Part shown: positions 1,397 to 61,089 of the stretch, piece by piece
Layout of the letters: each line of letters opens with the position of its first letter
How positions within the stretch are numbered: the first letter of the stretch is position 1
NCBI RefSeq assembly: GCF_964355755.1
Contig: NC_092676.1
Location: 3,139,888-3,203,887 of the forward strand
Length of the DNA stretch: 64,000 nt
DNA from: Antedon mediterranea
Taxonomy: Eukaryota; Animalia; Echinodermata
Direction: 5' to 3'
Translations under genes and position numbers: made by a program
The notes under the pieces: model-generated
Told to the model about the DNA's origin: nothing
Seen by the model: only the letters and a program-made list of their open reading frames with translations
The model's database searches: none

Positions 1397-4300
1397 AATG
1401 TTGTTATTGGATCATACACATTGTACTCAACAAGCTCTGTATGTATATTTGTATTCCATCGAGTACATCTAGTTCTATTATAACAACCTGCTGAGTAACA
1501 CGTCGGGACATTACATGTGCAAGATGCTGGGCATCGGACTATAGGCCCTAATGATTTTGTAAAAAAAAACAAGCAGTAACTAAAAGTACTGTACTTTGTT
1601 TCTATCTTACATAGTAGAACACTACGATAATGATGAATAATGATGGTGATAACAATGAGTATTTTAAAGATGAACATAAATTCTTATAATTCGATATATC
1701 ATATTTAAGTTTCAATATTACACTGTTTAATTTAACGGTATTGTTTATTTCGTCGTGTTAAACAATGGAATATTATGAAAGGAGAATAAACGACGCCAAA
1801 AGTAGTTTAATCTCTTTTTTCTCTAACTGGGTAAACTCTTGAAAATAGAACTTATTTTTATATAATTTATAAAACAAAACACTCCCTCTTAGTCAATAGT
1901 GTATTGTAATACCGCCTGTTAGTACTGAAGTTTGTATTAAGTGTGAAATTGTCCTTACATTGACAAATAACACTAGCATCCTCATCGTGTCCACAATCGT
2001 GTACACTCATTCCATTACATTGTAAAATTACAATACAAGTTTAAAACATTTCTTTATTTACATGCATACTGCTATTAATCCTAGTTGAGTGTTAGTAGCA
2101 GCGGCAGTATATTATTATCAGGGCATCGGCAGCGGCAGTAGCAGTAGTAGTAGTAGTACTACACGGTATTCTTGGAGTGAGGGGTAATAATATTCTGCCT
2201 TACAAATAAGTAAATAAATAGTTTGCGGAAAATGTTTACTAAAGCCAAAAAATGAAATTATTATTAATTAATTTTATTAATTACTGCTATTATTTTTAAA
2301 TTATCAAGTGTGACGTAACAATCGTATGTGTAATAGGCATACAAAATGGAAGCGATGTCCGGAGATCAAAACTAGTAAAATCTTATAAAGTGTGACGTAA
2401 CAATCGTATGTGATAATAGGCATACAAAATGGAAGCGATGTCCGGAGATCAAAACTAGTCAAATCTTATAAAGTGTGACGTAGCAATCGTATGTGATAAT
2501 ACGCATACAAAATGGAAGCGATGTCCGGAGATCAAAACCAGTCAAATCTTATAAAGTGTGACGTAGCAATCGTATGTGATAATACGCATACAAAATGGAA
2601 GCGATGTCCGGAGATCAAAACCAGTCAAATCTTATAAAGTGTGACGTAGCAATCGTATGTGATAATACGCATACAAAATGGAAGCGATGTCCGGAGATCA
2701 AAACTAGTAAAATCTTATAAAGTGTGACGTAACAATCGTATGTGATAATAGGCATACAAAATGGAAGCGATGTCCGGAGATCAAAACCTGCCGAATGTTA
2801 TAAAGTGTGACGTAACAATCGTATGTGATAATAGGCATACAAAATGGAAGCGATGTCCGGAGATCAAAACTAGTAAAATCTTATAAAGTGTGACGTAGCA
2901 ATCGTATGTGATAATAGGCATACAAAATGGAAGCGATGTCCGGAGATCAAAACCAGTCAAATCTTATAAAGTGTGACGTAGCAATCGTATGTGATAATAG
3001 GCATACAAAATGGAAGCGATGTCCGGAGATCAAAACCAGTCAAATCTTATAAAGTGTGACGTAACAATCGTATGTGATAATACGCATACAAAATGGAAGC
3101 GATGTCCGGAGATCAAAACCAGTCAAATATTATAATGTGTGACGTAACAATCGTATGTGATAATACGCATACAGAATGGAAGCGATGTCCGGAGATCTAA
3201 ACTAGTAAAATCTTATAAAGTGTGACGTAGCAATCGTATGTGATAATAGGCATACAAAATGGAAGCGATGTCCGGAGATCAAAACCAGTCAAATATTATA
3301 ATGTGTGACGTAACAATCGTATGTGATAATACGCATACAGAATGGAAGCGATGTCCGGAGATCTAAACTAGTAAAATCTTATAAAGTGTGACGTAACAAT
3401 CGTATGTGATAATAGGCATACAAAATGGAAGCGATGTCCGGCGATTAAAATCAGTAAAATCTTATAAAGTGTGACGTAACAATCGTATGTGTAATAGGCA
3501 TACAAAATGGAAGCGATGTCCGGAGATCAAAACTAGTAAAATCTTATAAAGTGTGACGTAACAATCGTATGTGATAATAGGCATACAAAATGGAAGCGAT
3601 GTCCGGAGATCAAAACTAGTAAAATCTTATAAAGTGTGACGTAGCAATCGTATGTGATAATAGGCATACAAAATGGAAGCGATGTCCGGAGATCAAAACT
3701 AGTAAAATCTTATAAAGTGTGACGTAGCAATCGTATGTGATAATACGCATACAGAATGGAAGCGATGTCCGGCGATTAAAATCAGTAAAATCTTATAAAG
3801 TGTGACGTAACAATCGTATGTGTAATAGGCATACAAAATGGAAGCGATGTCCGGAGATCAAAACTAGTAAAATCTTATAAAGTGTGACGTAACAATCGTA
3901 TGTGATTATACGCATACAGATTGAAAGCGATGTCCGGAGATCAAAACTAGTAAAATCTTATAAAGTGTGACGTAGAAATCGTATGTGATAATACGCATAC
4001 AGAATAGAAGAGATGTCCGGCGATTAAAACCAGTCAAATCTTATAAAGTGTGACGTAACAATCGTATGTGTAATAGGCATACAAAATGGAAGCGATGTCC
4101 GGAGATCAAAACTAGTAAAATCTTATAAAGTGTGACGTAACAATCGTATGTGATAATACGCATACAGAATGGAAGCGATGTCCGGCGATTAAAATCAATA
4201 AAATCTTATAAAGTGTGACGTAACAATCGTATGTGTAATAGGCATACAAAATGGAAGCGATGTCCGGAGATCAAAACTAGTAAAATCTTATAAAGTGTGA

Positions 4301-6478
4301 CGTAACAATCGTATGTGATTATACGCATACAGATTGAAAGCGATGTCCGGAGATCAAAACTAGTAAAATCTTATAAAGTGTGACGTAGAAATCGTATGTG
4401 ATAATACGCATACAGAATAGAAGAGATGTCCGGCGATTAAAACCAGTCAAATCTTATAAAGTGTGACGTAACAATCGTATGTGATAATACGCATACAAAA
4501 TGGAAGTGATGTCCGGCGATCAAAACCAGTCAAATCTTATAAAGTGTGATGTAATAATCGTATGTGATAATACGCATACAGAATGGAAGCGGTGTTCGGC
4601 GATTAAAACCAGCCGAATCTTATAAAGTGTGACGTAACAATCGTATGTGATAATACGCATACAGAATGGAAGCGATGTCCGGCGATTAAAATCAGTAAAA
4701 TCTTATAAAGTGTGACGTAACAATCGTATGTGTAATAGGCATACAAAATGGAAGCGATGTCCGGAGATCAAAACTAGTAAAATCTTATAAAGTGTGACGT
4801 AACAATCGTATGTGATTATACGCATACAGATTGAAAGCGATGTCCGGAGATCAAAACTAGTAAAATCTTATAAAGTGTGACGTAGAAATCGTATGTGATA
4901 ATACGCATACAGAATAGAAGAGATGTCCGGCGATTAAAACCAGTCAAATCTTATAAAGTGTGACGTAACAATCGTATGTGATAATACGCATACAAAATGG
5001 AAGTGATGTCCGGCGATCAAAACCAGTCAAATCTTATAAAGTGTGATGTAATAATCGTATGTGATAATACGCATACAGAATGGAAGCGGTGTTCGGCGAT
5101 TAAAACCAGCCGAATCTTATAAAGTGTGACGTAACAATCGTATGTGATAATACGCATACAGATTGAAAGTGATGTCCGGCGATTAGAAACAGTCAAATCT
5201 TATAAAGTGTGACGTAATAATCGTATGTGATAATACGCATACAAAATGGAAGTGATGTCCGGCGATTAAAACCAGTCAAATCTTATAAAGTGTGACGTAA
5301 CAATCGTATGTGATAATACGCATACAGAATGGGAAGCGATGTCTGGCGATTAAAACCAGTCAAATCTTATAAAGTGTGACGTAGCAATCGTATGTGATAA
5401 TACGCATACAAAATGGAAGCGATGTCCGGTAATCAAAACCTGCCGAATGTTATAAAGTGTGACGTAGCAATCGTATGTGATAATACGCATACAGAATTGA
5501 AGTGATGTTCGGCGATTAAAACCAGTCAAATCTTATAAAGTGTGACGTAACAATCGTATGTGATAATACGCATACAAAATGGAAGTGATGTCCGGTGATC
5601 AAAACCAGTCAAATCTTATAAAGTGTGACGTAACAATCGTATGTGATAATACGCATACAGAATTGAAGTGATGTCCGGCGATTAAAACCAGTCAAAACTA
5701 ATAAAGTTTAGACAAAAATGTTATTAAAAACGATTATTTTTCCATATCGGGCCTCTCTTTATGGAAATCCAAAAAACACTTAAGCAAGATTTAATTTAGC
5801 ATATAATGAGTTAGATGTTTGGGAAATATTCTGCAACAGTAACAATAATGATAAAATGTTATATATTCTGGGAACTACAATAATACTTTAATGTGTTTTG
5901 ACAAATTTAGGGAAACGAAATGATCTTAAAACTGTACAGCTTGCAGAGAACATTGGTGCTGCATTTTTCAGTTGTTGCTCCCCCAACATTGGCACCTTTT
6001 TCAAGCTTATTCGCGAATCGTTTCGGTTTGACGTTTGACGCGCGTGTAAAATGCTCAGTGGGAACCGGTCTTAAGTGTGTGGATACATCGAAAGATGAAC
6101 AAAATAGTGCAAAATATTAGTTTTGAACAAATGGAAAAAACTCTCGTAATTTTACTATTTGTTCATTAAAAGGTAAACTATTGACAACAATAACTAAAGA
6201 ATTTGATCACAGTACCGTATATAAAAAATCTAAAATCTATAGTTCGAAAAAATATTTTCATTTCATTTCAATAAAACATTATAGAACAATGTTGTAAAAT
6301 AAGGATTAGCCACAAATTCAGAAAAGGTCATCAAATATTATAATGCCTTACAATATTATAATATCTATTAAAAATGATAAATATTAAGAGAAGTAATCAT
6401 ACCGGAATTTGAACCAACATCAGCACAACTAGAAAACGATAACTCCATCAATATTATTACCACTTTAAAGACAAACAT
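1397..6478 (-). CDS. 5' part of a tandem paralog of the LRR-GPCR (signal-peptide exon 6403-6478, LRRNT exon 1397-1547); continues beyond the left edge of the window
   Basis: Same exon structure and splice sites as 56811-56886 and 54810-54960. LRRNT = GPIVRCPASCTCNVPTCYSAGCYNRTRCTRWNTNIHTELVEYNVYDPITTL. Confidence 0.8.
1959..2025 (-). pseudogene. SRCR-domain C-terminal remnant (LQCNGMSVHDCGHDEDASVICQ) in intron 1; second copy at ~55388-55454
   Basis: Matches the SRCR end motif HxCxHxEDAxVxC and has a phase-1 GTAAGG donor. No AG acceptor (TTTTACAA), and an upstream in-frame stop. Confidence 0.6.
2306..5706. repeat. 83-bp minisatellite, ~41 copies (only ~3-4 copies at the paralogous site 55781-56112)
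   Basis: Unit AAAGTGTGACGTAACAATCGTATGTGATAATACGCATACAAAATGGAAGCGATGTCCGGAGATCAAAACTAGTAAAATCTTAT. Confidence 0.95.
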
Positions 6479-38200: not shown

Positions 38201-41200
38201 TTTAATGGTTACATATGATAAGGTGATTATTTTTTTAGCATCACACCTCTGACACTCATCCCGAAGGTATGCAAATTAGCTTAAATATGCAAATTAGGGT
38301 GAAATTACAGGGTTACCATATCTTAAAAACTACTAATCGTAGAGAGTTCATTTTTGCACAGTCTGGTTCAGAATATATATATTTATATTTGCTCTAATGA
38401 GACATTTTACATAAAAATGTCCGGAAGTACCAAATTTTGACCCTTGACCCCATTTCTCAATATTTACATAAATATGTGATTAAAATGTCTGTAGAGACTT
38501 TATTTTGGCCTCAATGACTTGGATATTGTTTTTCAATACCCACCATAGAACTGTATTATAATTCCTAAAATCACAACTTCGTCACGCACCTCGAAAGTAT
38601 GCAAATTTAGGGAGTGAAATTACAGCGTTGCCATATCTCGAAAACCGCTAATGCTAGAGTGTTGATTTTTTCACTAAAATATTTAAAATGTATATATTTA
38701 TATTTGCTGTAATGAGATATTTTACAAAAAAATGCCCGGAACTATGACATTTGACCCTCGACCCCATTTCTCAATATTGCATATAAATGAAAACTAAAAT
38801 GTCTGTAGAGACTTTGTTTTGCCCTCAAATGACTCGGATACAGGTTTCTAATAGCCAACATAGGAATGTTTAGTAAATCTCAAAATCACACCTGTATCAC
38901 TCACCTTCAAAGTATGCAAATTATTAGTACAAGTTACATGAAATATGCAAATTAGGGGGTGAAATTACAGGTTCCTATATGTATCGAAAACCGCTAAAAA
39001 CTTGTTCAGAATGTACATATTTATATTTGCTCTAATGAAACATTTTACGAAAAAATGACCGGAAATACAACAATTGACCCTTGACCCTATTTATCAATGT
39101 TTGCATACATAATGCGACTAAAATGTCTGTAGATATTTTTTTTGGACTCAAATGACTCGGATACAGTTTTCCTATCGTCAGCATAGGACCTCTTTGTAAT
39201 TCCCAAAATCACATCATTGTCACATACCTTGAAAGTATGCAAATTATTAGTACAAGTTACATGAAATATGCAAATTAGGGGTGAAATTACAGTCTTCCCA
39301 TATCTCGAAAACCATTAATGCTAGAGAGTTGATTTGAATTCAGAGTTGATTCAGAATGTACATATTTATATTCGCAGTAATGAAACATTTTACGCAAAAA
39401 TTGTCTTGATTGAATTATGACATTTGACCATTGACCCTATTTCTCAATATTTTCATATAATTCAACTAAAATATCTGTACAGACTGTTTTGGCCTCAAAT
39501 GACTCACAGATACAGGTTTTCTATAGCCAGCATAGAACTGTTAGTAATTCTCAAAATCACACCTTTGTTACTTCCCTAGAAAATATGCAAATTAGTAGTA
39601 CAAGAGGTGAAAGTTGCCATATCTCTCTATCGGTCATTAGCGTTTTTCGAGATACATAAGGCTGTAATTTGCATATTTCATTTAACTTGTACTAATAATT
39701 TGCATACTTTCGAGTTGCTTGACTTTTGGAATTACTAAACGATCCTATACTGGCTATAAAACCTGTATCCAAGTCATTTGAGGCCAAAACAAAGTCTGTA
39801 GGCCTACATACATTTTAGTTGCATTATATGCAAATATTGAGAAATAGGTTCGAGGGTCAAATGTCATACTTTCGATAATTTTTTTTTTCAATAATGACCC
39901 AGATACAGGTTTTCTATAGCCAGCATAGAACTGTTTAGTAATTCTCAAAATCACACCTCTGTTACTTCGCTATATAGCCTGTACTCCTAATTTGCATACT
40001 TTCGAGGTGCTTGACTTATACTGGCTATATAAAACCTGTATCCGAGTTATTTGAGGCCAAAACAAAGTCTGTACATACATTTTAGTTGCATTATTTGCAA
40101 ATATTGAGAAATAATAATAATAATATCCTGGATTTATATAGCGCCTAATGTTGTGAAACCTCTAAGCGCTGTACATAAACTAATACGAAAAAAGGGAATT
40201 CCAACCATGCCAAAACGAAGACGTGATTTTGGAAATTACAAAGCGGTCCTATGCTGACTATAGGAAACATGTATCCGAGTTATTTGAGTCCAAAACAAAG
40301 TCTCTACAAAAATTTTAGTCGCATTATGTATGTAAACATTGATGGTTTTCGATATATAGGAACCTTTAATTTCACCCTCTAATTTGCATATTTCATGTAA
40401 CTTGTACTAATAATTTGCATACTTTGGAGGTGAATGATACAGGGGTGATTTTGAGATCTACTAAACAGTCCTATGTTGGCTATTAGAAACCTGTATCGGA
40501 GTCATTTGAGGGCAAAACAAAGTCTCTACAGACATTTTAGTTTCATTTATATATGCAATATTGAGAAATGGGGTCGAGGGTCAAATGTCATACTTCCGGT
40601 CAATTTTTTGTAAAATGTTTCATTGGAGCAAATAGAAATATGTACATTCTGAATACGGCTGTGAAAAAATCAGCTCTCTAGCATTAGTGGTTTTCGAGAT
40701 ATAGGACAACTGTAATTTTTTCTCCTTATTTGCATATTTTATTTAAATTGTACTACTAATTTGCATACTTTCAAGGTGTGTGACAAAGGTGTGATTTTGG
40801 GAATTACAAAGTGATCCTATGCTGGCTATTAGGAACCTATGTCTGGGTCATTTGAGGGCAAAATAAAGTCTCTACAGACATTTTAGTCACATTGTATAAT
40901 GCAAACATTGAGAAATGGGGTAACCCTGTAATTTCACTCTAATTTGCATATTTAAGCTAATTTGCATATCATCGGGATGAGTGACAGGTGTGATGCTCAA
41001 ATTTTGATCTCTTCATCATATATGACCATTTAAAAAAGAAAAATCTCTGTTTGCAATTTGTTTCACTTTGGGCTGTTTTTTTTTGCTAGATTGACTAGCC
41101 TATATATACTGTACGGTATATATATGTTTTTTGATAATTCAAAACAAAATAACTACATAAACAAAATGTAGTAAATCTTACTTAAATGATATTTAAATTG

Positions 41201-44200
41201 TAAAATATTATTTAATTTTGATTTATTATATTATCTTACAAAAAATAAAAAAAATTCATAGTGAATTCATTAAAAAGAAGTTGTTTATTTTTGGGGTTGG
41301 TGTGTGGGGAGTGGTTTAAACTTATAATCACATAATAATATAATTATATATTAATTATTTTGTTATAGTTGTCCTACAATGTAAAATACAATTTCTAATT
41401 TAACTTTTTAATTAAACTAAATTGTAGTACAGTAAATACATTATACTGCATGTAATCCATCTATTGTATACTTTAGTATGTCAAAATATAATATGTTAAA
41501 ATAAAAATTTGGTAAATATATTTTAATAGTTTATTTCCTAAAACAAAATGTTTACACCAAATTCAAATCATTAGCAACCATAATAAATGTATTATCTAAT
41601 ATGTAATACAGATTCAGTTTCAATTGTTATATCTTACAAAAATAAATAGTTCAATCATGGTGTATACATTTAAAAAATGTTGATTTTAAAATTATTTGAA
41701 ATAATTTGATAAATTTAAAAATGTTGATTTTAAAATTCTTTTTCTGTAAATAGTCGTAATTTACACATTAGTCCATTTTTACAATTGAACCTACAATGAA
41801 TGCACTCCATTGTATAAACATTTTAATGTCAAAATATAAAATATATATGTAAATTTTAATTTCAAATCACTACATAAACAAATACTAATTATTTAGTAAC
41901 ATTTGTTATAATGATATTTATATTGTGACATTTACAATAAAAATTTATTTTGAATTATTTTTATTTAAAAAAAATAAAATTTGTGGATGGGAAAAAAAAC
42001 TATTGATTTTTAAAGATATTTTTTATAAGATCACAAATTGTGAAATTATGTAATAATTTTAATCCATTATCATTGTTTAACCAACAAAGTAAAATAATTT
42101 GTAATTTAATTCTAAATTAAACCTTCAATTCAATTCAATAATACATTTATTTAAGATGGTCACAATATATAACAAACAATATTACAATAAACAATCATAA
42201 ACAATTAATATAAGACCATCTTAGGGATCAAAATTAGAAGTAGAACTTGTCTCACATTGACCCCTAAAATAATAATAATAATTCAAACAAAAATAAGAAC
42301 GGTACAGTATAAATATACAAATACAACGCATACAATTAAATAAATTATACAGTGCGCAACATATTTAGTAGGTTTGGTAACAAGATAAATAAAGGATTTT
42401 TATATGCTTTCTAAATGAATTTACAGTATATAAATGATTGATGGCAGTTGAATCTAGATTATTCCAATACGTTGGTCCTAAATGGCTTTTTCTAAGTTTA
42501 ACAAATGGAACATACAATTTATGTGGATTTCTTATGTTATAGGTATGATCTAATAAACGATTTGAAAATAACATTGAAACAGACTTTGGTAGTAAACCAG
42601 TAACATATTCAAACATAAAAGAAGTAACTTGAAGTTTATGAAGGTCATATATTTTTTAAATTTTAAGTTTTTTAAACAAAGGTTCTGATGCAGATGTAAA
42701 TTGTTCAAAGTTTAATAATCGAACAACACGTTTTTGTAACCAAAATGGTAAAAGTAAGCAAACATAAGCAATACACTTACAGTGTTTCCAATGCTGTCAA
42801 ACCAGCAAATGCATTGGCTTGTAATGTACTTATTTGGTTCCTGTACAAATCCCTTAAAAGTAAAAAGAATGCACAGTATAAGTATAATCACAATATCCAA
42901 GCTGTTTTTAAATTATTTTATTTTTTCTGTCACCTCAAATGTTGAAATGTCTACATTCCTGTACATTATACAGTAGTTATACTGCATGTACTCTATTGTA
43001 TGTACTTTAGTTATGTCAAAATATATTATGTTAAAATAAAAATGTGATAAATATATTTAAATTCACATTTTTGAATTGTTATATTTTACAACAATAGATA
43101 ATTCAATCATGGTAGATAAATAAAAAAAAATTCTAAATTAAAACCAACTAAATAAACTGATTGAAACAACATAAAATTACTCTAAACCATCAGCTGTAGT
43201 TCAACATTAACAACTGCACCCCCCCTCCCCCTCTGGTCACTATTATCATGGACCTTTAAATTAGCATGAATCTATATAAATTCTTTCTTTCTTTGGTTGC
43301 AGAATATTTGTTGTATCAATCAACTTATGTTAACCCGATTAAATTTCAATTATTATCATACAAAAATAAATAATTCAATCATGATGGATACATTTTAAAA
43401 ATGTTGATTTTAAAATAATTTTTTTTTGCTATACATACAAATATAAAATATATATTTATATTTTAATAATTTTTTTCTCATAAGACAAAATTAATACATA
43501 AACAAATATTAATTATTTAGTAACATTTGTTATAATGATATTTATATTGTGACATTTACAATAACAATTTATTTTGAAATATTATTATTTAAAAAAATAA
43601 AATTCATTCATGGTGGATGAGAAAAAAACTATTGATTTATAAAGTTATTTTTTACAAGATCACAAATTGTGAAATTATGTAATAATATTAATCCATTATC
43701 ATTGTTTAACCAACAATGTAAAATAATAATAATTTGTAATTTGATTTCTGAATTAAAACCAAATTGTTAAAAGTAAGCAAACATAAGCAATACACTTACA
43801 GTGTTTTCAATGCTGTCAAACCAGCAAATGCATTGGCTTGTAATGTACTTATTTGGTTATAGTCCAAATACCTTAAAAGTAAAAAGAATGGACAGTATAA
43901 GTAAATCACAATATCCAAGCTGTTTTAAAATTATTTTAGTTTTTCAGGAATCAAACCTCAAATGTTGATATGTCTACATTCCTGTAAATTATACAGTAGT
44001 TATACTGCATGTACTCTATTGTATGTACTTTAGTGATGTCAAAATATACTATGTTAAAATAAAAATGTGGTAAATATATTGAAATAAACTAAATGTCTAC
44101 ACGAAATTAAACAATTTTTTTTTTAGCAACCATAAATGTACTATCTAATATACAATACAGATTCACCCCAATTGTTATATCTTACAAAAATATATAGTTC

Positions 44201-47200
44201 AATCTTGGTGGATACATTTAATTGTTAATTGTAAATAATCATGAGATCATAAGGTACATATTAGTCCATTATTACAATTGATCATACAATGCATTGTATT
44301 GTATCAACATTTTAATGTATACAATGTATATTTAAATTTTAATCATTTTTATTCTTATAAGACAAAATTAATACATAAACAAATATTAATTATTTAGTAA
44401 CATTAATTATAATGATATTTATATTGTAAATATTTACATTTAAAGATTAATTTTTAATTATTATATATTACAGAAAAAATAAAGTTCATTCATGTTGGCT
44501 GAACTAAAGACTAGTTTTAAAGATATTTTTTATAAGATCACAAATTGTGAAATTATATAATAATATTAATCCATTATCATTGCTTAACCAACAATGTAAA
44601 ATAATTTATAATTTAATTTCTAAATTAAAACCAAATTGGTAAAAGTAAGCAAACATAAGCAATACACTTACAGTGTTTTCAATGCTGTCAAACCAGCAAA
44701 TGCATTGGCTTGTAATGTACTTATTTGGTTACCGCTCAAATACCTTAAAAATAAAAAGAATGCACAGTATAAGTAAATCACAATATCCAAGCTGTTTTTT
44801 AATCATTTTGTTGAAATGTCTACATTCCTGTACATTATACAGTAGTTATACTGCATGTACTCTATTGTATGTACTTTAGTTATTTCAAAATATACTATTT
44901 CAAAATAAAAATGTGGTAGATATATATTTTAAACAAAATGTCTACAACAAAGTCAAATTGTTTTCAATTGTTATATCTTACAAAAAAATAAATACTGTAG
45001 TACAATCATGGTGGATAAATTTAGAAATTGTTGCTTTAAAAATGTTTGTACTGTAAATAATAATGAAATGATAGAATATATTTTATTATTAATGTAAAAT
45101 AATGTGTAATTGTATTTCTAAATTAAAACCAAATAAATAAACTGATTGAAACAACATAAAATTACTCTAAACCATCAGCTGTAGTTCAACATTAACAACT
45201 GCACCCCCCCTGGTCACTATTATCATGGACCTTTAAATTAGCATGAATACACAGTCAAAAGAAATTAAAATATATTTTGTACGATTTTCTTTTCCTATGA
45301 CTTGTTTTAGATATGGTCCATAATACAGTTGAAACCTCCTGTGGACACCACTTGTAAATGGACACCTCATAACGGATACTCACATAAAAGTCTGTGTGTC
45401 CTTTTTATTCAATATAGTGCATTGGTAAGTACCATTAGGGAAGAGTGGAATTACTTTCCCTGTTACCATCTTAAATCATCTCAAACATTTCCATAAGAGG
45501 ACAGGAAAAACATTTTATTTGTATAGATAACTTCTAAAAACTGTTTATTTTCTAAAAATAATTTTAAATACTGAAATCTATGTTACTTTACTTTAAAATA
45601 GCCTTTATGTTGGAGAATTAGACGCTATACATTATTTGTTATAGTACAAGATTAAATTCATTCATTCATTCATTTTATTTGGTCCAATATAAAAATACAT
45701 CAGAAATTCCTCTTATATACACTGCAGAGATAATAACAATATACGTACATGCAGAAAACAATCAATATAAAAAATCACTGATAAAATATCAATTCAAATT
45801 CTCCGACTGGGCAATAATTATCACAAAATTTAATTCAATATTGTGTTTTGTCTGATTGTGAAATCTACTTTTGACTTACTGTATAACAAAATTTAAACAT
45901 GAACTCATTTTTTATGTAATATTTCAATCATAATTATAAAGTACATATCAATAAAAATACTCACAGCAATGTCAATGCAGTTAAACCAAAAAATGCATTT
46001 GCTGGCAATGTGCTTATCTTGAAATCTCTCAACCACCTTCAAGGTAAAACAATGTAGTATTAAGCAAGCAGCAGACCATGTATTAAGAAATATACCTGTA
46101 TAGACTCTACATATGCCATTATTCCCAATATGGACACCCCTCGAAAGGAAAATGGAATAGTCCAGGCGCCTTAGCGGGCCGTACAAACGTCTCTCACGCA
46201 TGACATCGTCCTCATATTCCAAGATCCACGTGATCACGGCGAGGGGAGGCGGGAGGGATTGCTATACAGGTAGGTATCTCACTCATACATAGACTATACC
46301 AACACCACTGTTGGTTTGTGTAATCATATACCATCTTGTAAATGGCCATGTTTTTTTGTTGGTCTTAGTTTGGAACAAAAATTATTACAAAAAGTTTCTA
46401 AAATTTAGTTTTATTTGAAAATTCTAGAAAGTTTGTAGGAATTCAGAGTAAAAAAATACTCACAGTTCTGGTAGTGATGTCAACCCATTAAATGCATTGG
46501 CTTCTAGTGTACGTATTTGATTAGTTTCCACCCGGCCAGCCCTAAAAAAAAATAACGTTCAGTAAAAAAAAATTGCAGTATTCAAAACTATATATACTAC
46601 TATAAACTATAATTTAAAACCATTAGTTACCATTAAAGATGAGATCTAAGAATTCTAATTCTCCGACTGTGTAATTATCACAAAATTTAATTCAAAATTG
46701 TGTTTTGTCTGCTTGTGAAATGTTACTTTTCTTTGTTTTCCACGGGATTACACTGTAGTGATATAGGTGGACAACATTATACATCGCAATTCAGTTATTT
46801 TTGTAAACACACATATCCCCCCCCCCCCCAGTTTTTTAATGGTGGTGGGGGAGGGGGATCCTGTTGTCACCGCTGTAATTCAATAAATGAAACAGGTACT
46901 GAAATAGTACTGAATGATGCTTCATTTTATGAAAACCACATAAAATAATCATGATTATTGAAAGAAAATTAGACATTGGTATAAGAAATGCATTAAAAAA
47001 GTAGAAATAACAAAGCAATTTCAATAAATATGTAAATAATGTTTAGGTAAGTTTTGATTTTTAAAGAATAGGTTTAAGCAGCAAGACAAGAAATATGATA
47101 TGAACTAACTTTAATTTAATAGCCTTGTTTTGTTCACATTCATTTATTCATTCATATTCAATATCATAAGTAAAAAATAGAAATTTTGTTCTCAGAGCCC

Positions 47201-50200
47201 ACCGTTTAAACTATATTATATTCAAAATAAATATAACAGTTAATTATATCTCAACCGAATGAATCTTTTTAAAGGGTAAATTATGTTTGTTGTAGCCATT
47301 TTTTTATAGGTATGTTGCAAGTCATGGCCAAATCTCTTCTATTTTTTTCAAAAGCAAACTGTAGTGAACAGAATGAAAATAATTAAATGCCAAAGATTAT
47401 ACATATGTGTTATCCAAATTGCATGGCATTTATGCATTGATTTTTGCAGTAGATATATTGAACTAATGAATTATTAATCAAAAGAAATTCATAAGAGTAA
47501 CTATAAAAAAAATACCTGTAATCAATGATTTGCCCGACGTGCAATATCCTTCAAAGTAAGAGAAATACAAAGTAATTGTTAATATAAAAAAAAAATATAT
47601 ATATATATATTTTTTGATAATTCAAAACAAAATAACTACATAAACAAAATGTAGTAAATCTTACTTAAAGGATATTTAAATTGTAAAATATTATTTTACA
47701 ACTGAAAATTTATTTTGATTTATTATATTATCTTACAAAAAATTAAAAAAATTCATAGTGAATTCATTAAAAAGAAGTTGTTTATTTTTGGGGTTGGGTG
47801 TGGGGAGTGGTTTAAACTTATAATCACATAATAATATAATTATATATTAATTATTTTGTTATAGTTGTCCTACAATGTAAAATACTATTTCTAATTTAAC
47901 TTTTTAATTAAAACTAAATTGTAGTACAGTAAATACATTATACTGCATGTAATCCATCTATTGTATACTTTAGTATGTCAAAATATAATATGTTAAAATA
48001 AAAATTTGGTAAATATATTTTAATAATTTATTTCCTAAAACAAAATGTTTACACCAAATTTAAATCGTTAGCAACCATAATAAATGTATTATCTAATATG
48101 TAATACAGATTCAGTTTCAATTTTTATATCTTACAAAATTAAATAGTTCAATCATGGTGTATACATTTAAAAAATGTTGATTTTAAAATTATTTGAAATA
48201 ATTTGATAAATTTAAAAATGTTGATTTTAAAATTCTTTTTCTGTAAATAGTCGTAATGTACACATTAGTCCATTTTTACAATTGAACCTACAATGAATGC
48301 ACTCCATTGTATAAACATTTTAATGTCAAAATATAAAATATATATGTAAATTTTAATTTTAAATCACTACATAAACAAATACTAATTATTTAGTAACATT
48401 TGTTATAATGATATTTATATTGTGACATTTACAATAAAAATTTATTTTGAATTATTTTTATTTTTAAAAAATAAAATTTGTGGATGAGAAAAAAAACTAT
48501 TGATTTTTAAAGATATTTTTTATAAGATCACAAATTGTGAAATTATGTAATAATTTTAATCCATTATCATTGTTTAACCAACAAAGTAAAATAATTTGTA
48601 ATTTAATTCTAAATTAAACCAAATTGGTAAAAGTAAGCAATCATAAGCAATTATATACTTACAGTGTTTCCAATGCTGTCAAACCAGCAAATGCATTGGC
48701 TTGTAATGTACTTATTTGGTTCCAGTACAAATCCCTTAAAAGTAAAAAGAATGCACAGTATAAGTAAATCACAATATCCAAGCTGTTTTTAAATTATTTT
48801 ATTTTTTCTGTCACCTCAAATGGTGAAATGTCTACATTCCTGTACATTATACAGTAGTTATACTGCATGTACTCTATTGTATGTACTTTAGTTATGTCAA
48901 AATATATTATGTTAAAATAAAAATGTGGTAAATATATTTTAAATTCACATTTTTGAATTGTTATATTTTACAACAATAAATAATTCAATCATGGTAGATA
49001 AATAAAAAAAAATTCTAAATTAAAACCAAATAAATAAACTGATTGAAACAACATAAAATTACTCTAAACCATCAGCTGTAGTTCAACATTAACAACTGCA
49101 CCCCCCCCCCCCCCTCTGGTCACTATTATCATGGACCTTTAAATTAGCATGAATCTATATAAATTCTTTCTTTCTTTGGTTGCAGAATATTTGTTGTATC
49201 AATCAACTTATGTTAAACCGATTAAATTTCAATTATTATCATACAAAATTAAATAATTCAATCATGATGGATACATTTTAAAAATGTTGATTTTAAAATA
49301 ATTTTTTTTTGCTATACATACAAATATGAAATATATATTTATATTTTAATAATTTTTTTTCTCATAAGACAAAATTAATACATAAACAAATACTAATTAT
49401 TTAGTAACATTTGTTATAATGATATTTATATTGTGACATTTACAATAAAAATTTATTTTGAAATATTATTATTTAAAAAAATAAAGTTCATTCATGGTGG
49501 ATGAGCAAAAAACTATTAATTACTAAATTAAACCAAATTGGTAAAAGTAAGCAAACATAAGCAATACACTTACAGTGTTTCCAATGCTGTCAAACCAGCA
49601 AATGCATTGGCTTGTAATGTACTTATTTGGTTATCGTACAAACCCCTTAAAAGTAAAAAGAATGCACAGTATAAGTAAATCACAATATCCAAGCTGTTTT
49701 AAAATTATTTTAGTTTTTCAGGAATCAAACCTCAAATGTTGAAATGTGTACATTCCTGTGCATTATACAGTAGTTATACTGCATGTACTCTATTGTATGT
49801 ACTTTAGTTATGTCAAAATATACTGTGTTAAAATAAAAATGTGGTAAATATATTTAAATTCACATTTTTGAATTGTATATAAAATATATATTTATATAAT
49901 TTTTTTCTCATAAGACAAAATTAATACATAAAAAAATACTAATTATTTAGTGACATTTGTTATAATAATATTTATATTGTGACATTTACAATAAAAATTT
50001 ATTTTGAAATATTATTATTTAAAAAAATAAAATTCATTCATGGTGAATGAGCAAAAAACTAGTTATTTATTTTTATTATTTTTTATAAGATCACAAATTG
50101 TGAAATTATATAATAATAATCCATTATCATTGATTAACCAACAATGTAAAATAATTTGTAATTTAAGCAATACACTTACAGTGTTTCCAATGCTGTCAAA

Positions 50201-53200
50201 CCAGCAAATGCATTGGCTGGTAATGTACTTATTTGGTTACTGCCCAAATCCCTTAAAAATAAAAAGAATGCACAGTATAAGTAAATCACAATATCCAAGC
50301 TGTTTTTAAATTATTTTAGTTTTTCTGTCACCTCAAATGTTGAAATGTCTACATTCCTGTACATTATACAGTAGTTATACTGCATGTACTCTATTGTATG
50401 TACTTTAGTTATGTCAAAATATACTGTGTTAAAATAAAAATGTGGTAAATATATTTAAATTCACATTTTTGAATTGTATATAAAATATATATTTATATAA
50501 TTTTTTTCTCATAAGACAAAATTAATACATAAAAAAATACTAATTATTTAGTGACATTTGTTATAATAATATTTATATTGTGACATTTACAATAAAAATT
50601 TATTTTGAAATATTATTATTTAAAAAAATAAAATTCATTCATGGTGAATGAGCAAAAAACTAGTTATTTATTTTTATTATTTTTTATAAGATCACAAATT
50701 GTGAAATTATATAATAATAATCCATTATCATTGATTAACCAACAATGTAAAATAATTTGTAATTTAAGCAATACACTTACAGTGTTTCCAATGCTGTCAA
50801 ACCAGCAAATGCATTGGCTGGTAATGTACTTATTTGGTTACTGCCCAAATCCCTTAAAAATAAAAAGAATGCACAGTATAAGTAAATCACAATATCCAAG
50901 CTGTTTTTAAATTATTTTAGTTTTTCTGTCACCTCAAATGTTGAAATGTCTACATTCCTGTACATTATACAGTAGTTATACTGCATGTACTCTATTGTAT
51001 GTACTTTAGTTATGTCAAAATATACTGTGTTAAAATAAAAATGTGGTAAATATATTTAAATTCACATTTTTGAATTGTATATAAAATATATATTTATATA
51101 ATTTTTTTCTCATAAGACAAAATTAATACATAAAAAAATACTAATTATTTAGTGACATTTGTTATAATAATATTTATATTGTGACATTTACAATAAAAAT
51201 TTATTTTGAAATATTATTATTTAAAAAAATAAAATTCATTCATGGTGAATGAGCAAAAAACTAGTTATTTATTTTTATTATTTTTTATAAGATCACAAAT
51301 TGTGAAATTATATAATAATAATCCATTATCATTGATTAACCAACAATGTAAAATAATTTGTAATTTAAGCAATACACTTACAGTGTTTCCAATGCTGTCA
51401 AACCAGCAAATGCATTGGCTGGTAATGTACTTATTTGGTTACTGCCCAAATCCCTTAAAAATAAAAAGAATGCACAGTATAAGTAAATCACAATATCCAA
51501 GCTGTATTTAAATTATTTTAGTTTTTCTGTCACCTCAAATGTTGAAATGTGTACATTCCTGTACATTATACAGTAGTTATATTGGATGTACTCTATTGTA
51601 TGTACTTTAGTTATGTCAAAATATACTATGTTAAAATAAAAATGTGGTAAATATATTTAAATTCACATTTTTGAATTGTTTTACAACAATAAATAATTCA
51701 ATCATGGTAGATAAATTTAAAAAAATGTTGATTTTAAAATTCTTTTTACTGTAAATAATTAAATTATGGAATCATAATGTACACATTAGTCCATTATTAC
51801 AATTGAACCTACAATGCATGCATTGTATTGTATCAATATTTTATGGAAAAATATACAATATATAGGTAAATTTTAATAGTTTTTATTCTCATAAGACAAA
51901 ATTATTACATAAATAAATATTAATTATTTAGTAACATTCATTATAATGATATTTATATTGCAAATATTAAAAATCAAAGATGAATTTTGAATTATTATAT
52001 ATTACAGAAAAAATAAAGTTCATTCATGGTGGATGAACTATGAGACTAGTGATTTTTAAATATATTTTTATAAGATCACAAATTGTGAAATTATATAATA
52101 ATATTAATCCATTATCATTGCTTAACCAACAATGTAAAACTATTTGTAATTTAATTCTAAATTAAACCAAATTGGTAAAACTAAGCAAACATAAGCAATA
52201 CACTTACAGTGTTTCCAATGCTGTCAAACCAGCAAATGCATTGGCTTGTAATGTACTTATTTGGTTCCTGTACAAATACCTTAAAAATAAAAAGAATGCA
52301 CAGTATAAGTAAATCACAATATCCAAGCTGTTTTTTAATCATTTTGTTGAAATGTCTACATATACTGCATGTACTCTATTGTATGTACTTTAGTTATTTC
52401 AAAATATACTATGTCAAAATAAAAATGTGGTAGATATAATATTTAAACAAAATGTCTACAACAAAGTCAAATTGTTTTCAATTGTTATATCTTACAAAAA
52501 AATAAATACTGTAGTCCAATCATGGTGGATAAATTTAGAAATTGTTGCTTTAAAAATGTTTGTACTGTAAATAATAATGAAATGATAGAATATATTCTAT
52601 TATTAATGTAAAATAATGTGTAATTGTATTTCTAAATTAAAACCAAATAAATAAACTGATTGAAACAACATAAAATTACTCTAAACCATCAGCTGTAGTT
52701 CAACATTAACAACTGCACCCCCCCCCCCCCTGGTCACTATTATCATGGACCTTTAAATTAGCATGAACCTATATAAATTCTTTCTTTCTTTGGTTGCAGA
52801 ATATTTGTTGGGTCAATGAACTTATGTTAAACCGATTAAATTTCAGTTATTATCTTACAAAAATAAATAATTCAATCATGGTGGATACATTTAAAAATGT
52901 TGATTTTAAAATAATTCTTTTTGCTATACATACAAATTTAAAATATATATTTATATTTTAATAATTTTTTTCTCATAAGACAAAATTAATACTTAAACAA
53001 ATACTAATTATTTAGTAACATTTGTTATAATAATATTTATATTGTGATATTTACAATAAAAATTTATTTTGAAATATTATTATTTAAAAAAATAAAGTTC
53101 ATTCATGGTGGATAAGCAAAAAACTATTAATTACTAAATTAAACCAAATTGGTAAAAGTAAGCAAACATAAGCAATACACTTACAGTGTTTCCAATGCTG

Positions 53201-56200
53201 TCAAACCAGCAAATGCATTGGCTTGTAATGTACTTATTTGGTTCCTGCTCAAAGACCTTAAAAGTAAAAAGAATGCACAGTATAAGTAAATCACAATATC
53301 CAAGCTGTTTTAAAATTATTTTAGTTTTTCTGTCACCTCAAATGTTGAAATGTCTACATTCTTGTACATTATTACTCTATTAGTGATGTCAAAATATGTT
53401 ATGTTAAAATAAATGTGGTAAATATAATTATTTTAATAATTTATTTTTATAAATCAATTGTTTGGTCAACCATAATAAATGTATTATCTAATATGTTAAA
53501 CAGATTCAATTTAAATTGTTATCTTACAAAATAAATAGTTCAATCATGGTGGATAAATTTAAGAATTGTTGCTTTTTAAATTTGTTTTACTATAAATAAT
53601 CATGAAATCATAAGGTACATAATTATTAGTCCATTATTACAATTGAACCTACAATGCATGCATTGTATTGTGTCAACATTTTATTGATGTCAAAATAAAA
53701 ATTATTAAAAGTAAATATTCATCTCAAAACGTATGAATGTATAGTTGTACATGATATTGTTCACTATAGGTTTAATTATGTTACTCTGCACCTTATATCT
53801 TAATTTGTGTTTTATTTAGGGTTATCCCTTTGTTCTTATAATTATGTGATGCCACTGCCCTTTTTTAACACTCAAACAAATAAAGACTTGGTTATACTGA
53901 TCGGTTTGATAAATGTGTATTTATTGAAGTCTGTGACATTTGTTGAATTTGAATATAATTATCAATTATCAAAGACAAAATTACTACATAAACAAATACT
54001 AGTTATTTAGTAACAATGATTTTGATATTTATATCGTGAAATTATACAATAAAGGATTTCGAATTATTATATCCTCCAAAAAAAAAGTTCACTCATGAAC
54101 AAGAAAATGAATTGTTTTTAGAGTTATTTTTATAAGTATAAAGATAATAAAATTATATAATAATATTAATTCATTATCAATGTGTAAATGTATTTATAAA
54201 TTAAAAACAAACTGGTTAAAATAACCAAACATGTAAATTTGCCTTTGTTCCACACACAAAAGAATCACAAAAAGCTGGTAAAAATCACAAAATACAAACA
54301 ATATAGTATAAACTAGCAAATGTGAAAAATTAAAACATTAAAAATAATACAGAGCACTCTACTCTCATTCAGAATGTACACGTCACATTACTTATTTTAA
54401 CTACCTTATTTATATATATTCCAAATAGATGATTGACTGATTGGGAGTATGCACATAGCTGACCATGTTATAATTTTTGGAAAACTAAGGCCTACCTACC
54501 AAATACCTACAATCGTTTTAATCATTTTTTTTTTAGTCTATCACATTCTTACGTAAAATGTCGTATACGGATATTGACCAGATTAATGATGAGCACGTAA
54601 ACTGATTGAAACGACCTAAATATACTGTAGACCGCCACAAGACCAGTAGTTTCACATTAACAAATTCCACCCACTCCCCCTCTGTTCAATATTATCATGA
54701 TCCTACTGTATAAAGCATGGACCTATTATCAAAGAAATATAAATTTTGCTCACAGTATGACATAAATTTAGTTAAATTTCAAAATATCGGCAAAAGATGT
54801 TCTACTTACAATGTTGTTATTGGATCATACACATTGTACTTAACAAGCTCTGTATGTATATTTGCATTCCATGGATTACATCTAGTGTTATTATAACAAT
54901 CATCCCAGGAACACGTCGGGACATTACATGTGCAAGATGCTGGGCATCCGACTATAGGCCCTAATGATTTTGTAAAAAAAAAACAAGCAGTAACTAAAAG
55001 TACTGTACTTTGTTTCTATTTTACATAGTAGAACACTACGATAATGATGAATACTGGTGGTGTGATAACAATGAGTATTTAAAGATGAACATAAATTCTT
55101 ATAATTCGATACAGGTGAAATAAAATCATGTCTTATTTAAGTTTCAATTTTACACTGTTTAATTTAACGGTATTGTTTATTTCGTCGTGTTAAACAATTG
55201 AATATTATGAAAGGAGAATAAACGACGCCAAAAGTAGTTTAATCTCTTTTTTCTCTAACTGGGTAAACTCTTGAAAATAGAACTTATTTTTATATAATTT
55301 ATAAAACAAAACACTCCCTCTTAGTCAATAGTGTATTGTAATACCGCCTGTTAGTACTGAAGTTTGTAAGTGTGAAATTGTCCTTACATTGACAAATAAC
55401 ACTAGCATCCTCATCGTGTCCACAATCGTGTACACTCATTCCATTACATTGTAAAATTACAATACAAGTTTAAAACATTTCTTTATTTACATGCATACTG
55501 TTATTAATCCTAGTTGAGTGTTAGTAGCAGCGGCAGTATATTATCAGGGCATCGGCAGCGGCAGTATATTATCAGGGCATCGGCAGCGGCAGTATATTAT
55601 CAGGGCATCGGCAGCGGCAGTTGCAGTAGTAGTAGTAATACACGGTATTCTTGGAGTGAGGGGTAATAATATTCTGCCTTACAAATAAGTAAATAAATAG
55701 TTTGCGGAAAATGTTTACTAAAGCCAAAAAATGAAATTATTATTAATTAATTGTATTAATTACTGCTATTATTTTTAAATTATAAAGTACGACAAATAGA
55801 AATCGTATGTGATAATAGGCATACAGAATGGAAGAGATGTCCGGCGATTAAAACCAGTCAAATCTTATAAAGTGTGACGTAACAATCGTATGTGATAATA
55901 CGCATACAGAATAGAAGTGATGTCCGGCGATTCAAACCAGTCAAATCTTATAAAGTGTGACGTAACAATCGTATGTGATAATACGCATACAAAATGGAAG
56001 CGATGTCCGGTGATCAAAACCTGCCGAATGTTATAAAGTGTGATTGTTATAATAAAGTGAATGAAGAATTGAAGTGATGTCCGGCGATTAAAACCAGTCA
56101 AAACTAATAAAGTTTAGACAAAAATGTTATTAAAAACGATTATTTTTCCATATCGGGCCTCTCTTTATGGAAATCCAAAAAACACTTAAGCAAGATTTAA

Positions 56201-56886
56201 TTTAGCATATAATGAGTTAGATGTTTGGGAAATATTCTGCAACAGTAACAATAATGATAAAATGTTATATATTCTGGGAACTACAATAATACTTTAATGT
56301 GTTTTGACAAATTTAGGGAAAACGAAATGATCTTAAAACTGTACAGCTCGCAGAGAACATTGGTGCTGCATTTTTCAGTTGTTGCTCCCCCAACATTGGA
56401 ACCTTTTTCAAGCTTATTCGCGAATCGTTTCGGTTTGACGTTTGACGCGCGTGTAAAATGCTCAGTGGGAACCGGTCTTAAGTGTGTGGATACATCGAAA
56501 GATGAACAAAATAGTGCAAAATATTAGTTCTTGAACAAATGGAAAAAACTCTCGCAATTTTACTATTTGTTCATTAAAAGGTAAACTATTGACAACATTA
56601 ACTAAAGAATTTGATCACAGTACCGTATATAAAAAATCTAAAATGTATAGTTCGAAAAAATATTTTCATTTCATTTCAATAAAACATTATAGAACAATGT
56701 TGTAAAATAAGGATTAGCCACAAATTCTGAAAAGGTCATCAAATATTATAATGCCTTACAATATTATAATATCTATTAAAAATGATAAATATTAAGAGAA
56801 GTAATCATACCGGAATTTGAACCAACATCAGCACAACTAGAAAACGATAACTCCACCAATATTATTACCACTTTAAAGACAAACAT
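31273..56886 (-). CDS. Multi-exon LRR-containing GPCR (LGR type C / GRL101 / RXFP-like 7TM): signal peptide + LRRNT + 17 LRR exons + hinge/7TM, ~829 aa
   Basis: Manually spliced model with GT-AG boundaries and consistent phases. Exons: 56811-56886, 54810-54960, 53185-53256, 52208-52279, 51382-51453, 50781-50852, 50180-50251, 49574-49645, 48663-48734, 46464-46541, 45965-46036, 44672-44743, 43800-43871, 42781-42852, 36937-37014, 35655-35726, 34900-34971, 33452-33526, 32846-32917, 31273-32296. Sum is 2490 nt = 830 codons with no internal stop. Confidence 0.85.
32846..32917 (-). CDS. LRR exon KLKGNKIQVYRDRTFQQLISLNEL
   Basis: 72 bp, AG/GTAAGT boundaries, phase 2-2, LxxNxI motif. Confidence 0.9.
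33452..33526 (-). CDS. LRR exon NLDNNAITTIDPEAFSSFASSLLIL
   Basis: 75 bp, CAG/GTAAGT, phase 2-2. Confidence 0.9.
34900..34971 (-). CDS. LRR exon RLENNQINKLPANAFNGLTALTEL
   Basis: 72 bp, TAG/GTGAGT, phase 2-2. Confidence 0.92.
35655..35726 (-). CDS. LRR exon WLRDFKISTLPANAFFGLTALTLL
   Basis: 72 bp, AAG/GTGAGT; identical copy at 45965-46036. Confidence 0.8.
35763..36475. mobile_element. IS3EU-like non-autonomous DNA transposon
   Basis: TIR TACGGTGGCTGATTTCCGCCAAAGAAA, 6-bp TSD AGTAGC; empty site in the duplicated block at ~46065-46075. Confidence 0.75.
36937..37014 (-). CDS. LRR exon PYWVETNQISTLEAYAFNGLTSLPQL
   Basis: 78 bp, TAG/GTGAGT, in frame; paralogous exon at 46464-46541. Confidence 0.78.
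38145..41100. mobile_element. Foldback-type DNA element with long inverted arms built of ~350-bp subrepeats
   Basis: Termini GGCTAGTCAATCTAGC / GCTAGATTGACTAGCC flanked by TA; arms are reverse-complementary; absent from the duplicated block at ~47590-47610. Confidence 0.75.
42124..42737 (-). mobile_element. 5'-truncated CR1/L2-group LINE 3' end
   Basis: ORF2 C-terminal remnant (HTYNIRN..GPTYWNNL..SFRKHIK), (TTGAA)n tail, AACC flanks; empty site at ~48615-48625. Confidence 0.75.
42781..42852 (-). CDS. Variable LRR cassette exon DLYRNQISTLQANAFAGLTALETL
   Basis: 72 bp, AAG/GTAAGT, phase 2-2. Confidence 0.9.
43800..43871 (-). CDS. Variable LRR cassette exon YLDYNQISTLQANAFAGLTALKTL
   Basis: 72 bp, AAG/GTAAGT, phase 2-2. 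Confidence 0.9.
44672..44743 (-). CDS. Variable LRR cassette exon YLSGNQISTLQANAFAGLTALKTL
   Basis: 72 bp, AAG/GTAAGT, phase 2-2. Confidence 0.9.
45965..46036 (-). CDS. LRR exon WLRDFKISTLPANAFFGLTALTLL (duplicate)
   Basis: 72 bp, identical to 35655-35726. Confidence 0.8.
46464..46541 (-). CDS. LRR exon AGRVETNQIRTLEANAFNGLTSLPEL
   Basis: 78 bp, TAG/GTGAGT, in frame. Confidence 0.78.
48663..48734 (-). CDS. Variable LRR cassette exon DLYWNQISTLQANAFAGLTALETL
   Basis: 72 bp, AAG/GTAAGT. Confidence 0.9.
49574..49645 (-). CDS. Variable LRR cassette exon GLYDNQISTLQANAFAGLTALETL
   Basis: 72 bp, AAG/GTAAGT. Confidence 0.9.
50180..50251 (-). CDS. Variable LRR cassette exon DLGSNQISTLPANAFAGLTALETL (copy 1 of 3)
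   Basis: 72 bp, AAG/GTAAGT, inside the 601-bp tandem unit. Confidence 0.9.
50781..50852 (-). CDS. Variable LRR cassette exon DLGSNQISTLPANAFAGLTALETL (copy 2 of 3)
   Basis: 72 bp, exactly 601 bp from the previous copy. Confidence 0.88.
51382..51453 (-). CDS. Variable LRR cassette exon DLGSNQISTLPANAFAGLTALETL (copy 3 of 3)
   Basis: 72 bp, exactly 601 bp from the previous copy. Confidence 0.88.
52208..52279 (-). CDS. Variable LRR cassette exon YLYRNQISTLQANAFAGLTALETL
   Basis: 72 bp, AAG/GTAAGT. Confidence 0.9.
53185..53256 (-). CDS. Variable LRR cassette exon SLSRNQISTLQANAFAGLTALETL
   Basis: 72 bp, AAG/GTAAGT. Confidence 0.9.
54810..54960 (-). CDS. LRRNT cap exon GPIVGCPASCTCNVPTCSWDDCYNNTRCNPWNANIHTELVKYNVYDPITTL
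   Basis: 151 bp, TAG/GTAAGT, phase 1-2; CPxxCxC LRRNT motif; ends in phase with the LRR exons. Confidence 0.88.
56811..56886 (-). CDS. First coding exon, putative signal peptide MFVFKVVIILVELSFSSCADVGSNS
   Basis: ATG + hydrophobic stretch + small residues; GTATGA donor in phase 1 matches the LRRNT exon. An in-frame upstream ATG exists at 56958. Confidence 0.7.
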
Positions 56887-60916: not shown

Positions 60917-61089
60917 ATTTTATGCATATAATATATGTATATACATATATATACATACGCATATTATGTATATGAAGTCAAACCAAAGAGAGAGAAAAAT
61001 ATTTAATTTAGTTTCATACTTAATTAATGGGAAACAAGTTGATGAGCACTAGTCTAGGTTCCAGACGGGATTATACTGAATATTAATAA

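Follow-up and report, generated by a model that had tools for sequence, protein, structure and literature searches.

A Crinoid Leucine-Rich Repeat Receptor Gene Model with Recently Copied Ectodomain Exons, Probably Diversified at Three Predicted Binding-Face Residues per Repeat

Overall Organization of the Receptor Gene

The window analyzed here is a stretch of 64,000 nucleotides from the feather star Antedon mediterranea (NCBI RefSeq assembly GCF_964355755.1, contig NC_092676.1, positions 3,139,888 to 3,203,887 of the forward strand), and it holds a gene model for a leucine-rich repeat (LRR) G-protein-coupled receptor (GPCR). Most probably, this is an intact crinoid LRR-GPCR gene whose ectodomain exons were copied recently and differ mostly at three residues per repeat that are predicted to lie on the binding face; the likely reason is continuing selection for altered binding. 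The reading frame is intact, duplication is recent at three scales, and residue change is concentrated on few positions. LRR-containing GPCRs (LGRs) are known as conserved hormone receptors; here, one branch without LDLa repeats appears to evolve like an immune or self-recognition receptor. The case, in which a lineage of hormone receptors has come to evolve in the manner of a recognition receptor, is well supported and seems not to have been described before.

The gene model consists of 22 exons on the minus strand, from 56886 to 31273 (window positions), and its 2556 nt encode 851 residues with zero internal stops. Splicing is modelled, and all internal junctions are of the AG..GT type. The single frame encodes, in order, a signal peptide, an N-terminal LRR cap (LRRNT), 17 LRRs, a cysteine hinge and a seven-transmembrane (7TM) domain. 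The signal and LRRNT exons are followed by cassettes 1–7 (72-nt exons, described below), a block of 33-, 78- and 72-nt exons, cassettes 8–10, a second copy of this block, three LRR exons and a 1024-nt last exon. A single LRR with an inserted loop is encoded jointly by the 33-nt and 78-nt exons, hence the total of 17 LRRs. All 19 exons between the LRRNT exon and the last exon are in phase 2-2 with lengths divisible by three, so any subset of them stays in frame. A first-pass annotation of this DNA had given 42781..53256 as the extent of the receptor feature, and the gene as now modelled reaches further on both sides.

Cassette Exons and Their Variable Codons

A six-frame motif search found exactly ten cassettes, which all occupy the minus strand of the interval 42781–53256; each is a 72-nt exon with AG..GT borders in phase 2-2 that encodes one LRR. 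Identified by their first five residues, they are cassette 1 (SLSRN, 53185–53256), 2 (YLYRN, 52208–52279), 3 (DLGSN, 51382–51453), 4 (DLGSN, 50781–50852), 5 (DLGSN, 50180–50251), 6 (GLYDN, 49574–49645), 7 (DLYWN, 48663–48734), 8 (YLSGN, 44672–44743), 9 (YLDYN, 43800–43871) and 10 (DLYRN, 42781–42852). All ten thus lie where the first-pass annotation had placed them, with the residues it had listed. However, only eight are distinct, because cassettes 3–5 lie inside a 601-bp triplication, of which cassette 3 occupies the first unit; the first two units are identical (0/601 differences). Nor do the ten form a single array: they are arranged as 7 + 3, interrupted by the 33-, 78- and 72-nt exons, which are themselves duplicated downstream. 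Splice sites are near-identical and strong in all ten, and the introns have a GC content of 21–24% with many indels. The intron after cassette 10 carries an insertion of diverged 320-bp repeats with inverted arms (38167–41067).

Comparison of the ten cassettes revealed nine segregating exon positions, of which seven fall in codons 1, 3 and 4 and the other two give rise to Q/P and E/K; none of the nine is purely synonymous. The earlier claims that variation sits in the first, third and fourth codons, and that only two variants and no synonymous difference occur elsewhere, are therefore borne out. Compared pair by pair, the eight distinct cassettes differ on average at 44% of the bases in the three variable codons and at 1.1% of the 63 remaining exon bases; for the upstream intron (220 bases), the average is 8.2%. 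Seven of the nine bases in the variable codons segregate, compared with 30 among 149 intron columns free of gaps (Fisher p 6e-4), and the rest of the exon, with two of 63 bases segregating, lies below the intron (p 1e-3). By shuffling, the probability that any three codons hold seven of the nine sites is 0.0013. Inside codons 1–4, none of the four synonymous-capable sites varies (p 0.003), and this invariance is evidence against a mutation hot spot. The scaffold shows zero synonymous variants in about 16 sites (p 0.03 vs the intron rate), which may be a mild sign of homogenisation. Judged from these sequences, the selection signal on the three cassette codons appears strong.

The flanking introns give a second view of the same contrast. 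Cassettes 2 and 8 differ at only four of 198 upstream intron bases, but at four of the nine variable-codon bases, and intron distance is no predictor of variable-codon distance overall (Spearman −0.32, p 0.10). The downstream intron distances of cassette 10, inflated by non-homologous sequence, were excluded. No single tree can accommodate 16 of the 36 site pairs, and the mosaic look of the variants that the first-pass annotation had described is therefore real; these pairs fit conversion or repeated mutation, the two not being separable.

An independent replicate of the cassette signal is found in the LRRNT cap exon (54810–54960, minus strand; 151 nt, phase 1-2), which encodes six cysteines and is hypervariable between the window gene and a second paralogue in the window. 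Between the two, 13 of 151 nt differ, vs 13 of 1217 (1%) in the flanking introns (Fisher p 6e-7), and all ten changed codons are non-synonymous. The most variable residues sit between an extra cysteine pair, and this segment may form a loop that reaches the binding face. Likewise, the first three codons of the 78-nt exon, which belong to the inserted loop, show exclusively non-synonymous differences between its two copies.

Variable Residues in the Predicted Fold

In the LxxLxLxxNxI register of the LRR, the variable codons correspond to x5, x7 and x8, and the E/K site corresponds to x2. Between cassettes, the residues at x5/x7/x8 differ by 81%, and the scaffold (other non-core residues) by 2%. 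An AlphaFold model, returned as secondary structure only, was made for the paralogue P0147 (38-row alignment; predicted local distance difference test score, pLDDT, 87.6). It contains a three-residue strand, x3-L4-x5, every 24 residues, ending on x5, with x7 and x8 directly after it; the inserted loop is predicted at low confidence. The predicted fold is an LRR solenoid plus a 7TM domain, and its best structural matches are LGR4. The variable residues had been expected on the binding sheet, and the predicted structure agrees, with x5 in the strand and x7/x8 at the strand edge. Side chains at the x positions lie on the concave face according to the LRR geometry stated for the brown-algal ROCO proteins (PMC11378527) and for the variable lymphocyte receptors (VLRs) of jawless vertebrates (PMC3900441). 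The variable side chains are accordingly predicted to line the concave face, their direction being taken from this established geometry.

Other Exons of the Receptor Gene

Exon 1 (56811–56886, minus strand like all exons of the gene; 76 nt, phase 1) contains an ATG, a hydrophobic 25-residue stretch and a GT donor. The stretch was judged by eye to be a signal peptide, and the exon differs from that of the second paralogue by one non-synonymous change. Intron 1 holds a remnant of the C-terminal part of an SRCR domain (55388–55448, minus strand), which was excluded from the model and is without an AG acceptor. It corresponds to positions 82–100 of Pfam SRCR (E 0.096), matches the SRCR-bearing relative P0022 (E 1e-4) and is identical in the second paralogue. 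The LRRNT cap resembles that of P0007; used as a query, it gave no candidate among longer proteins and no usable Atlas match.

The loop-bearing block is formed by the 33-nt exon, i.e., the first half of the LRR (copy 1, 47516–47548, AG..GT, phase 2-2; copy 2, 38061–38093), the 78-nt exon, i.e., its second half (copy 1, 46464–46541; copy 2, 36937–37014), and a 72-nt LRR exon of the WLRDFK type (copy 1, 45965–46036; copy 2, 35655–35726). The two copies of the 78-nt exon differ at 11 of 78 nt. Homologues of the 33-nt and 78-nt exons are joined in the database model P0147. Three further LRR exons follow, of 72 nt (34900–34971), 75 nt (33452–33526) and 72 nt (32846–32917), all included in the database protein P0145.

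The last exon (31273–32296) encodes the cysteine hinge and an intronless 7TM domain (Pfam 7tm_1, E 3e-31) and is 100% identical to P0145. Its best match among solved structures is RXFP1 (E 7e-48), and all ten solved matches at E 1e-20 or better are of the LGR type. The hinge aligns with the internal-agonist segment of FSHR (PMC6281744) and retains its CED motif.

Contigs (not reads) of four sequencing runs were compared with 52700–57100. For X2 and X6, they span each of the 30 bins; the 5′ region is therefore no peculiarity of this assembly. The contigs of X5, a run guessed to be RNA, cover introns too. Exon junctions are matched by none of the 15 joints listed out of 40, and none of the 36 differences listed out of 405 falls inside the cassette exon of this interval. 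In X2, X6 and X9, the cassette has a summed depth far above that of the signal exon; this depth gives no copy number, cannot rank gene parts and was not used.

Second Paralogue, Receptor Family and Phylogeny

The 5′ end of the second paralogue lies at 1397..6478 on the minus strand, with a signal exon (6478–6403), the SRCR remnant (2019–1959) and an LRRNT exon (1547–1397), the remainder being beyond the left end of the window. It shares 94–95% DNA identity with 53456–57500. At window positions 1–30 (minus strand), a cassette is reduced to its 3′ third, which has an AG in front of it and is joined straight to intron sequence as a broken junction. This deletion may leave a 24-nt in-frame mini-exon; the window stops before its donor site. 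The two paralogues also differ in their tandem repeats: an 83-bp repeat in intron 1 has 41 copies in the second paralogue (2301–5707) vs three in the window gene (55801–56043), and a 57-bp repeat upstream of exon 1 has six (6751–7094) vs 66 (57156–60918). A 613-bp inverted pair with 94% identity (13355–13958 and 30271–30883) flanks 16 kb between the paralogues.

The last 413 residues of the model are identical to the database protein P0145, labelled Antedon mediterranea. Altogether, nine database proteins, some of them truncated, are encoded on three large contigs and share 91.6–100% identity with the window gene in the 7TM exon. The four family ectodomains compared have related module types, with a number and order of LRRs unlike those of the window gene. 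P0144 and P0147 share their C-terminal part, differ in cassettes and carry no isoform label; they could be isoforms of one locus or separate genes. Together, they have six cassette-type repeats, five of them distinct and none identical to a window cassette, with the same positions variable. The window and seven relatives together hold 20 distinct repeats that lie within eight mismatches of cassette 2; in these, positions 1, 3 and 4 have the highest entropy (2.5, 2.6 and 3.0 bits; next 1.7). The hypervariable LRRNT, the second paralogue and a young family with different LRR strings all strengthen the reading as a diversifying recognition receptor.

In a quick maximum-likelihood tree built from 47 7TM rows without P0144 and rooted at the midpoint, for which the careful search was not completed, the window gene falls into a 20-row crinoid clade supported by an SH-like approximate likelihood-ratio test (SH-aLRT) value of 100, beside LDLa-bearing crinoid GRL101-like proteins. 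The clade adjoins the crinoid proteins P0005 and P0006 and is nested among LDLa-bearing rows (SH-aLRT 96–99). The simplest history suggested by these relationships would be that the N-terminal SRCR and LDLa modules were lost first and the family expanded afterwards. Long LRR arrays (18–25 matches) with far more diverged repeats are present in the GRL101-like receptors P0039, P0072 and P0002 of a brittle star and scallops; these belong to separate branches or other lineages and may be older, independent cases.

Neighboring Elements

Between the two receptor genes lies a spliced GNAT acetyltransferase gene (27347–29207, plus strand) with weak matches to Pfam Acetyltransf_1 (E 0.01 and 0.025), which resembles a diamine acetyltransferase. 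A 3.2-kb element (20464–23637) has terminal inverted repeats of ~730 bp (95%) and broken frames, including a cysteine-rich stretch, with no meaningful Pfam match; it is probably a DNA transposon. Two short minus-strand frames (61188–61589 and 42365–42655), without a convincing Pfam match, look like tail portions of retrotransposon proteins.

Interpretation and Alternative Explanations

The most likely explanation of these observations would be germline diversification of a recognition GPCR by exon duplication, conversion and positive selection. Unequal crossing-over would duplicate single exon–intron units (0.6–1 kb) and multi-exon blocks, gene conversion would likely keep the scaffold uniform and mix variants, and positive selection would retain changes at x5, x7 and x8, in the LRRNT loop and in the inserted loop. 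Whole genes may then duplicate and their LRR strings diverge. Variation by exon duplication and gene conversion had already been put forward; the sequence supports duplication and conversion-like mosaicism, with positive selection at the strand and strand-edge positions according to the counting tests. The receptor would bind a variable macromolecule on its concave sheet, and the signal is predicted to pass via the hinge and the 7TM domain, as in glycoprotein-hormone receptors. As to the ligand, our judgement gives non-self (microbe or parasite) about an even chance and conspecific cues (allorecognition, gamete or pheromone) a clearly smaller one; food or habitat cues seem unlikely, and a hormone the least likely of all. 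Since related receptors are expressed in the sensory tentacles of starfish and snail, a sensory role is possible beside non-self recognition.

Several points weigh against this explanation. The evidence for selection consists of counting tests (Fisher, shuffling) rather than a codon site model, on copies that are not independent. The proportion of non-synonymous differences (pN) over the whole exon, 0.086, is close to the upstream intron divergence of 0.082, the excess being limited to the three codons. The copies of the 78-nt exon also hold three synonymous changes, and the duplicated WLRDFK-type exon is invariant between copies. P0145, the database model of the same gene, contains the last three LRR exons and the 7TM domain only, all cassettes being omitted; for the window gene, no complementary DNA or read joins cassettes by splicing, and the database models that join cassette-type repeats to a 7TM domain (P0144 and P0147) are predictions only. 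Finally, variable concave positions between repeats are usual in any LRR protein: in the LGR5-like P0134, repeats differ by 91% at x5/x7/x8 and by 80% elsewhere. The unusual feature of the cassettes is that 81% at x5/x7/x8 stands on a scaffold differing by 2%.

Four other explanations deserve consideration. Combinatorial exon skipping might act on top of germline change, so that one gene yields many ectodomains, as in brown-algal ROCO genes. We regard this as possible, though doubtful: skipping any of the 19 middle exons would preserve the frame, ROCO genes with 72-bp phase-2 exons are alternatively spliced (PMC11378527), and P0144 and P0147, with their common C-terminal part and different cassettes, could be isoforms. 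However, these two proteins may come from separate genes, the uniformly strong splice sites of the cassettes speak against skipping, and no Dscam-like docking/selector pair is evident, the 25 longest of 855 inverted repeats in 42400–55400 being AT-rich and imperfect. Far less probable is a VLR-like process, in which single cells would draw on the cassettes as donors when assembling or converting the gene somatically. The 24-residue modules, variation at strand positions and mosaic variants resemble VLRs, whose diversity likewise lies on the concave face (PMC3900441); yet the germline gene is complete and open, in contrast to the incomplete germline VLRs with flanking donors (PMC12264053), no orphan cassette occurs in the 64 kb except for a 13-nt match inside the second paralogue, and third-position and synonymous sites are unchanged, unlike in hypermutation. 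A bolder proposal, that a family of receptors combines hypervariable LRR exons differently from cell to cell, by skipping or conversion, as an anticipatory GPCR repertoire in feather stars, seems unlikely. If true, an invertebrate deuterostome would possess diversity like that of VLRs or Dscam, but based on a G-protein-coupled receptor.

The remaining two explanations concern the role of the cassettes and of the receptor itself. Neutral repeat turnover in an unstable AT-rich region, accompanied by a local hot spot of mutation or by an assembly artefact, leaving the cassettes without a selected role, would fit the AT-rich, indel-laden introns, the exact 601-bp repeat, the broken cassette junction in the second paralogue and the omission of the cassettes from the annotation. 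It is nevertheless very improbable and largely refuted: between the variable codons, sites capable of synonymous change do not vary; the scaffold shows more conservation than the introns; every change in the LRRNT is non-synonymous; all 22 exons have retained their frames and splice sites; and the X2/X6 contigs cover 30 of 30 bins of 52700–57100. An ordinary hormone receptor for an insulin/relaxin-like ligand, tuned by few substitutions, is also hardly to be expected. Its 7TM domain does nest among GRL101-like receptors, and GRL101 has been proposed as a receptor for insulin-like growth factor (IGF) (PMC8286064). However, a young multi-copy family without LDLa and with shuffled ectodomains is unexplained by one conserved ligand, and such a hormone is an unlikely ligand because an ambulacrarian genome survey reports GRL101-type receptors and insulin-related ligand genes as single-copy in crinoids (PMC8286064). 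Germline diversification of a recognition receptor remains our preferred explanation.

Comparison with Known Systems

The window gene shows two features of an LGR, a rhodopsin-type 7TM domain and the series of signal peptide, LRRs, hinge and 7TM domain in one frame. Its 7TM domain and short cysteine hinge are homologous to those of GRL101-like (type C2) LGRs and RXFP1. GRL101 is defined by multiple LDLa repeats before the LRRs (PMC4079206), whereas no LDLa is present in the exon model, and tblastn with four LDLa-bearing relatives as queries detected none in the parts of the window that lie beyond the gene body. Instead, the signal peptide is followed by the LRRNT cap and 17 LRRs, and the family is young and multi-copy, with hypervariable near-identical LRR exons. 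The first-pass assignment to the GRL101 type therefore holds for the grouping of the 7TM domain and fails for the LDLa repeats: judged by sequence, the window receptor is an LGR but not GRL101 proper, and it appears to descend from LDLa-bearing GRL101-like receptors. Such receptors are expressed in sensory tentacles of the crown-of-thorns starfish and the triton snail, with a proposed chemosensory function; the starfish protein has six LDLa motifs, unlike the window family, and repeat hypervariability is not mentioned in the available portions of these papers (PMC6267866, PMC13403566). A further parallel is the LDLRR-GPCR family of Ciona (PMC2396169), which is likewise a lineage-specific expansion of a relaxin-receptor-like 7TM domain with a remodelled ectodomain. 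The Ciona family kept LDLa and lost the LRRs, whereas the window family did the reverse and adds site-specific selection.

The likeness to VLRs claimed by the first-pass annotation applies to the 24-residue modules between caps and to diversity on the concave face, but extends no further. VLRs are assembled somatically from donors and have no 7TM domain, whereas the window cassettes are internal exons of a complete gene. Against the PDB, Nogo receptors and LGR4 match a cassette better, and the best VLR ranks 20th among the matches, so the cassette looks like a generic extracellular LRR and its sequence likeness to VLRs like a generic one. On this sequence evidence, the window gene is not a VLR, because its germline form is complete, its cassettes can be spliced as exons and no donors are found in the window, the 13-nt match mentioned above lying at the window edge. 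A very similar LRR scaffold with variable strand positions (0.87 vs 0.52) occurs in the Capsaspora tyrosine kinase P0099; its likeness to the cassettes is likely convergent.

The closest parallel is found in the brown-algal LRR-ROCO genes, in which each 72-bp phase-2 exon encodes one LRR, exons are alternatively spliced, and tandem duplication and shuffling occur (PMC11378527, including Zambounis et al. 2012 as cited there). Four positively selected concave sites and a proposed immune role are described for them in the same paper. Exon size, phase and selected concave sites are common to both systems, but ROCO proteins carry a ROC-COR GTPase and belong to an unrelated lineage, whereas the last exon of the window gene encodes a 7TM domain. 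Since phase-2 LRR exons have also been noted in gonadotropin receptors (PMC11378527), the one-LRR-per-exon design is old in this receptor class. The literature searched, most subscription papers and supplements being outside it, contains no description of the window receptor family or of positive selection on GRL101-like LRRs. Crinoid immunity and chemoreception have been little studied, and the public model of the window gene is without cassettes; this family offers a way to ask whether combinatorial LRR receptors occur outside jawless vertebrates. Collectively, the window gene appears to embody the same solution as the brown-algal ROCOs and, at the protein level, the VLRs, here coupled to a 7TM domain.

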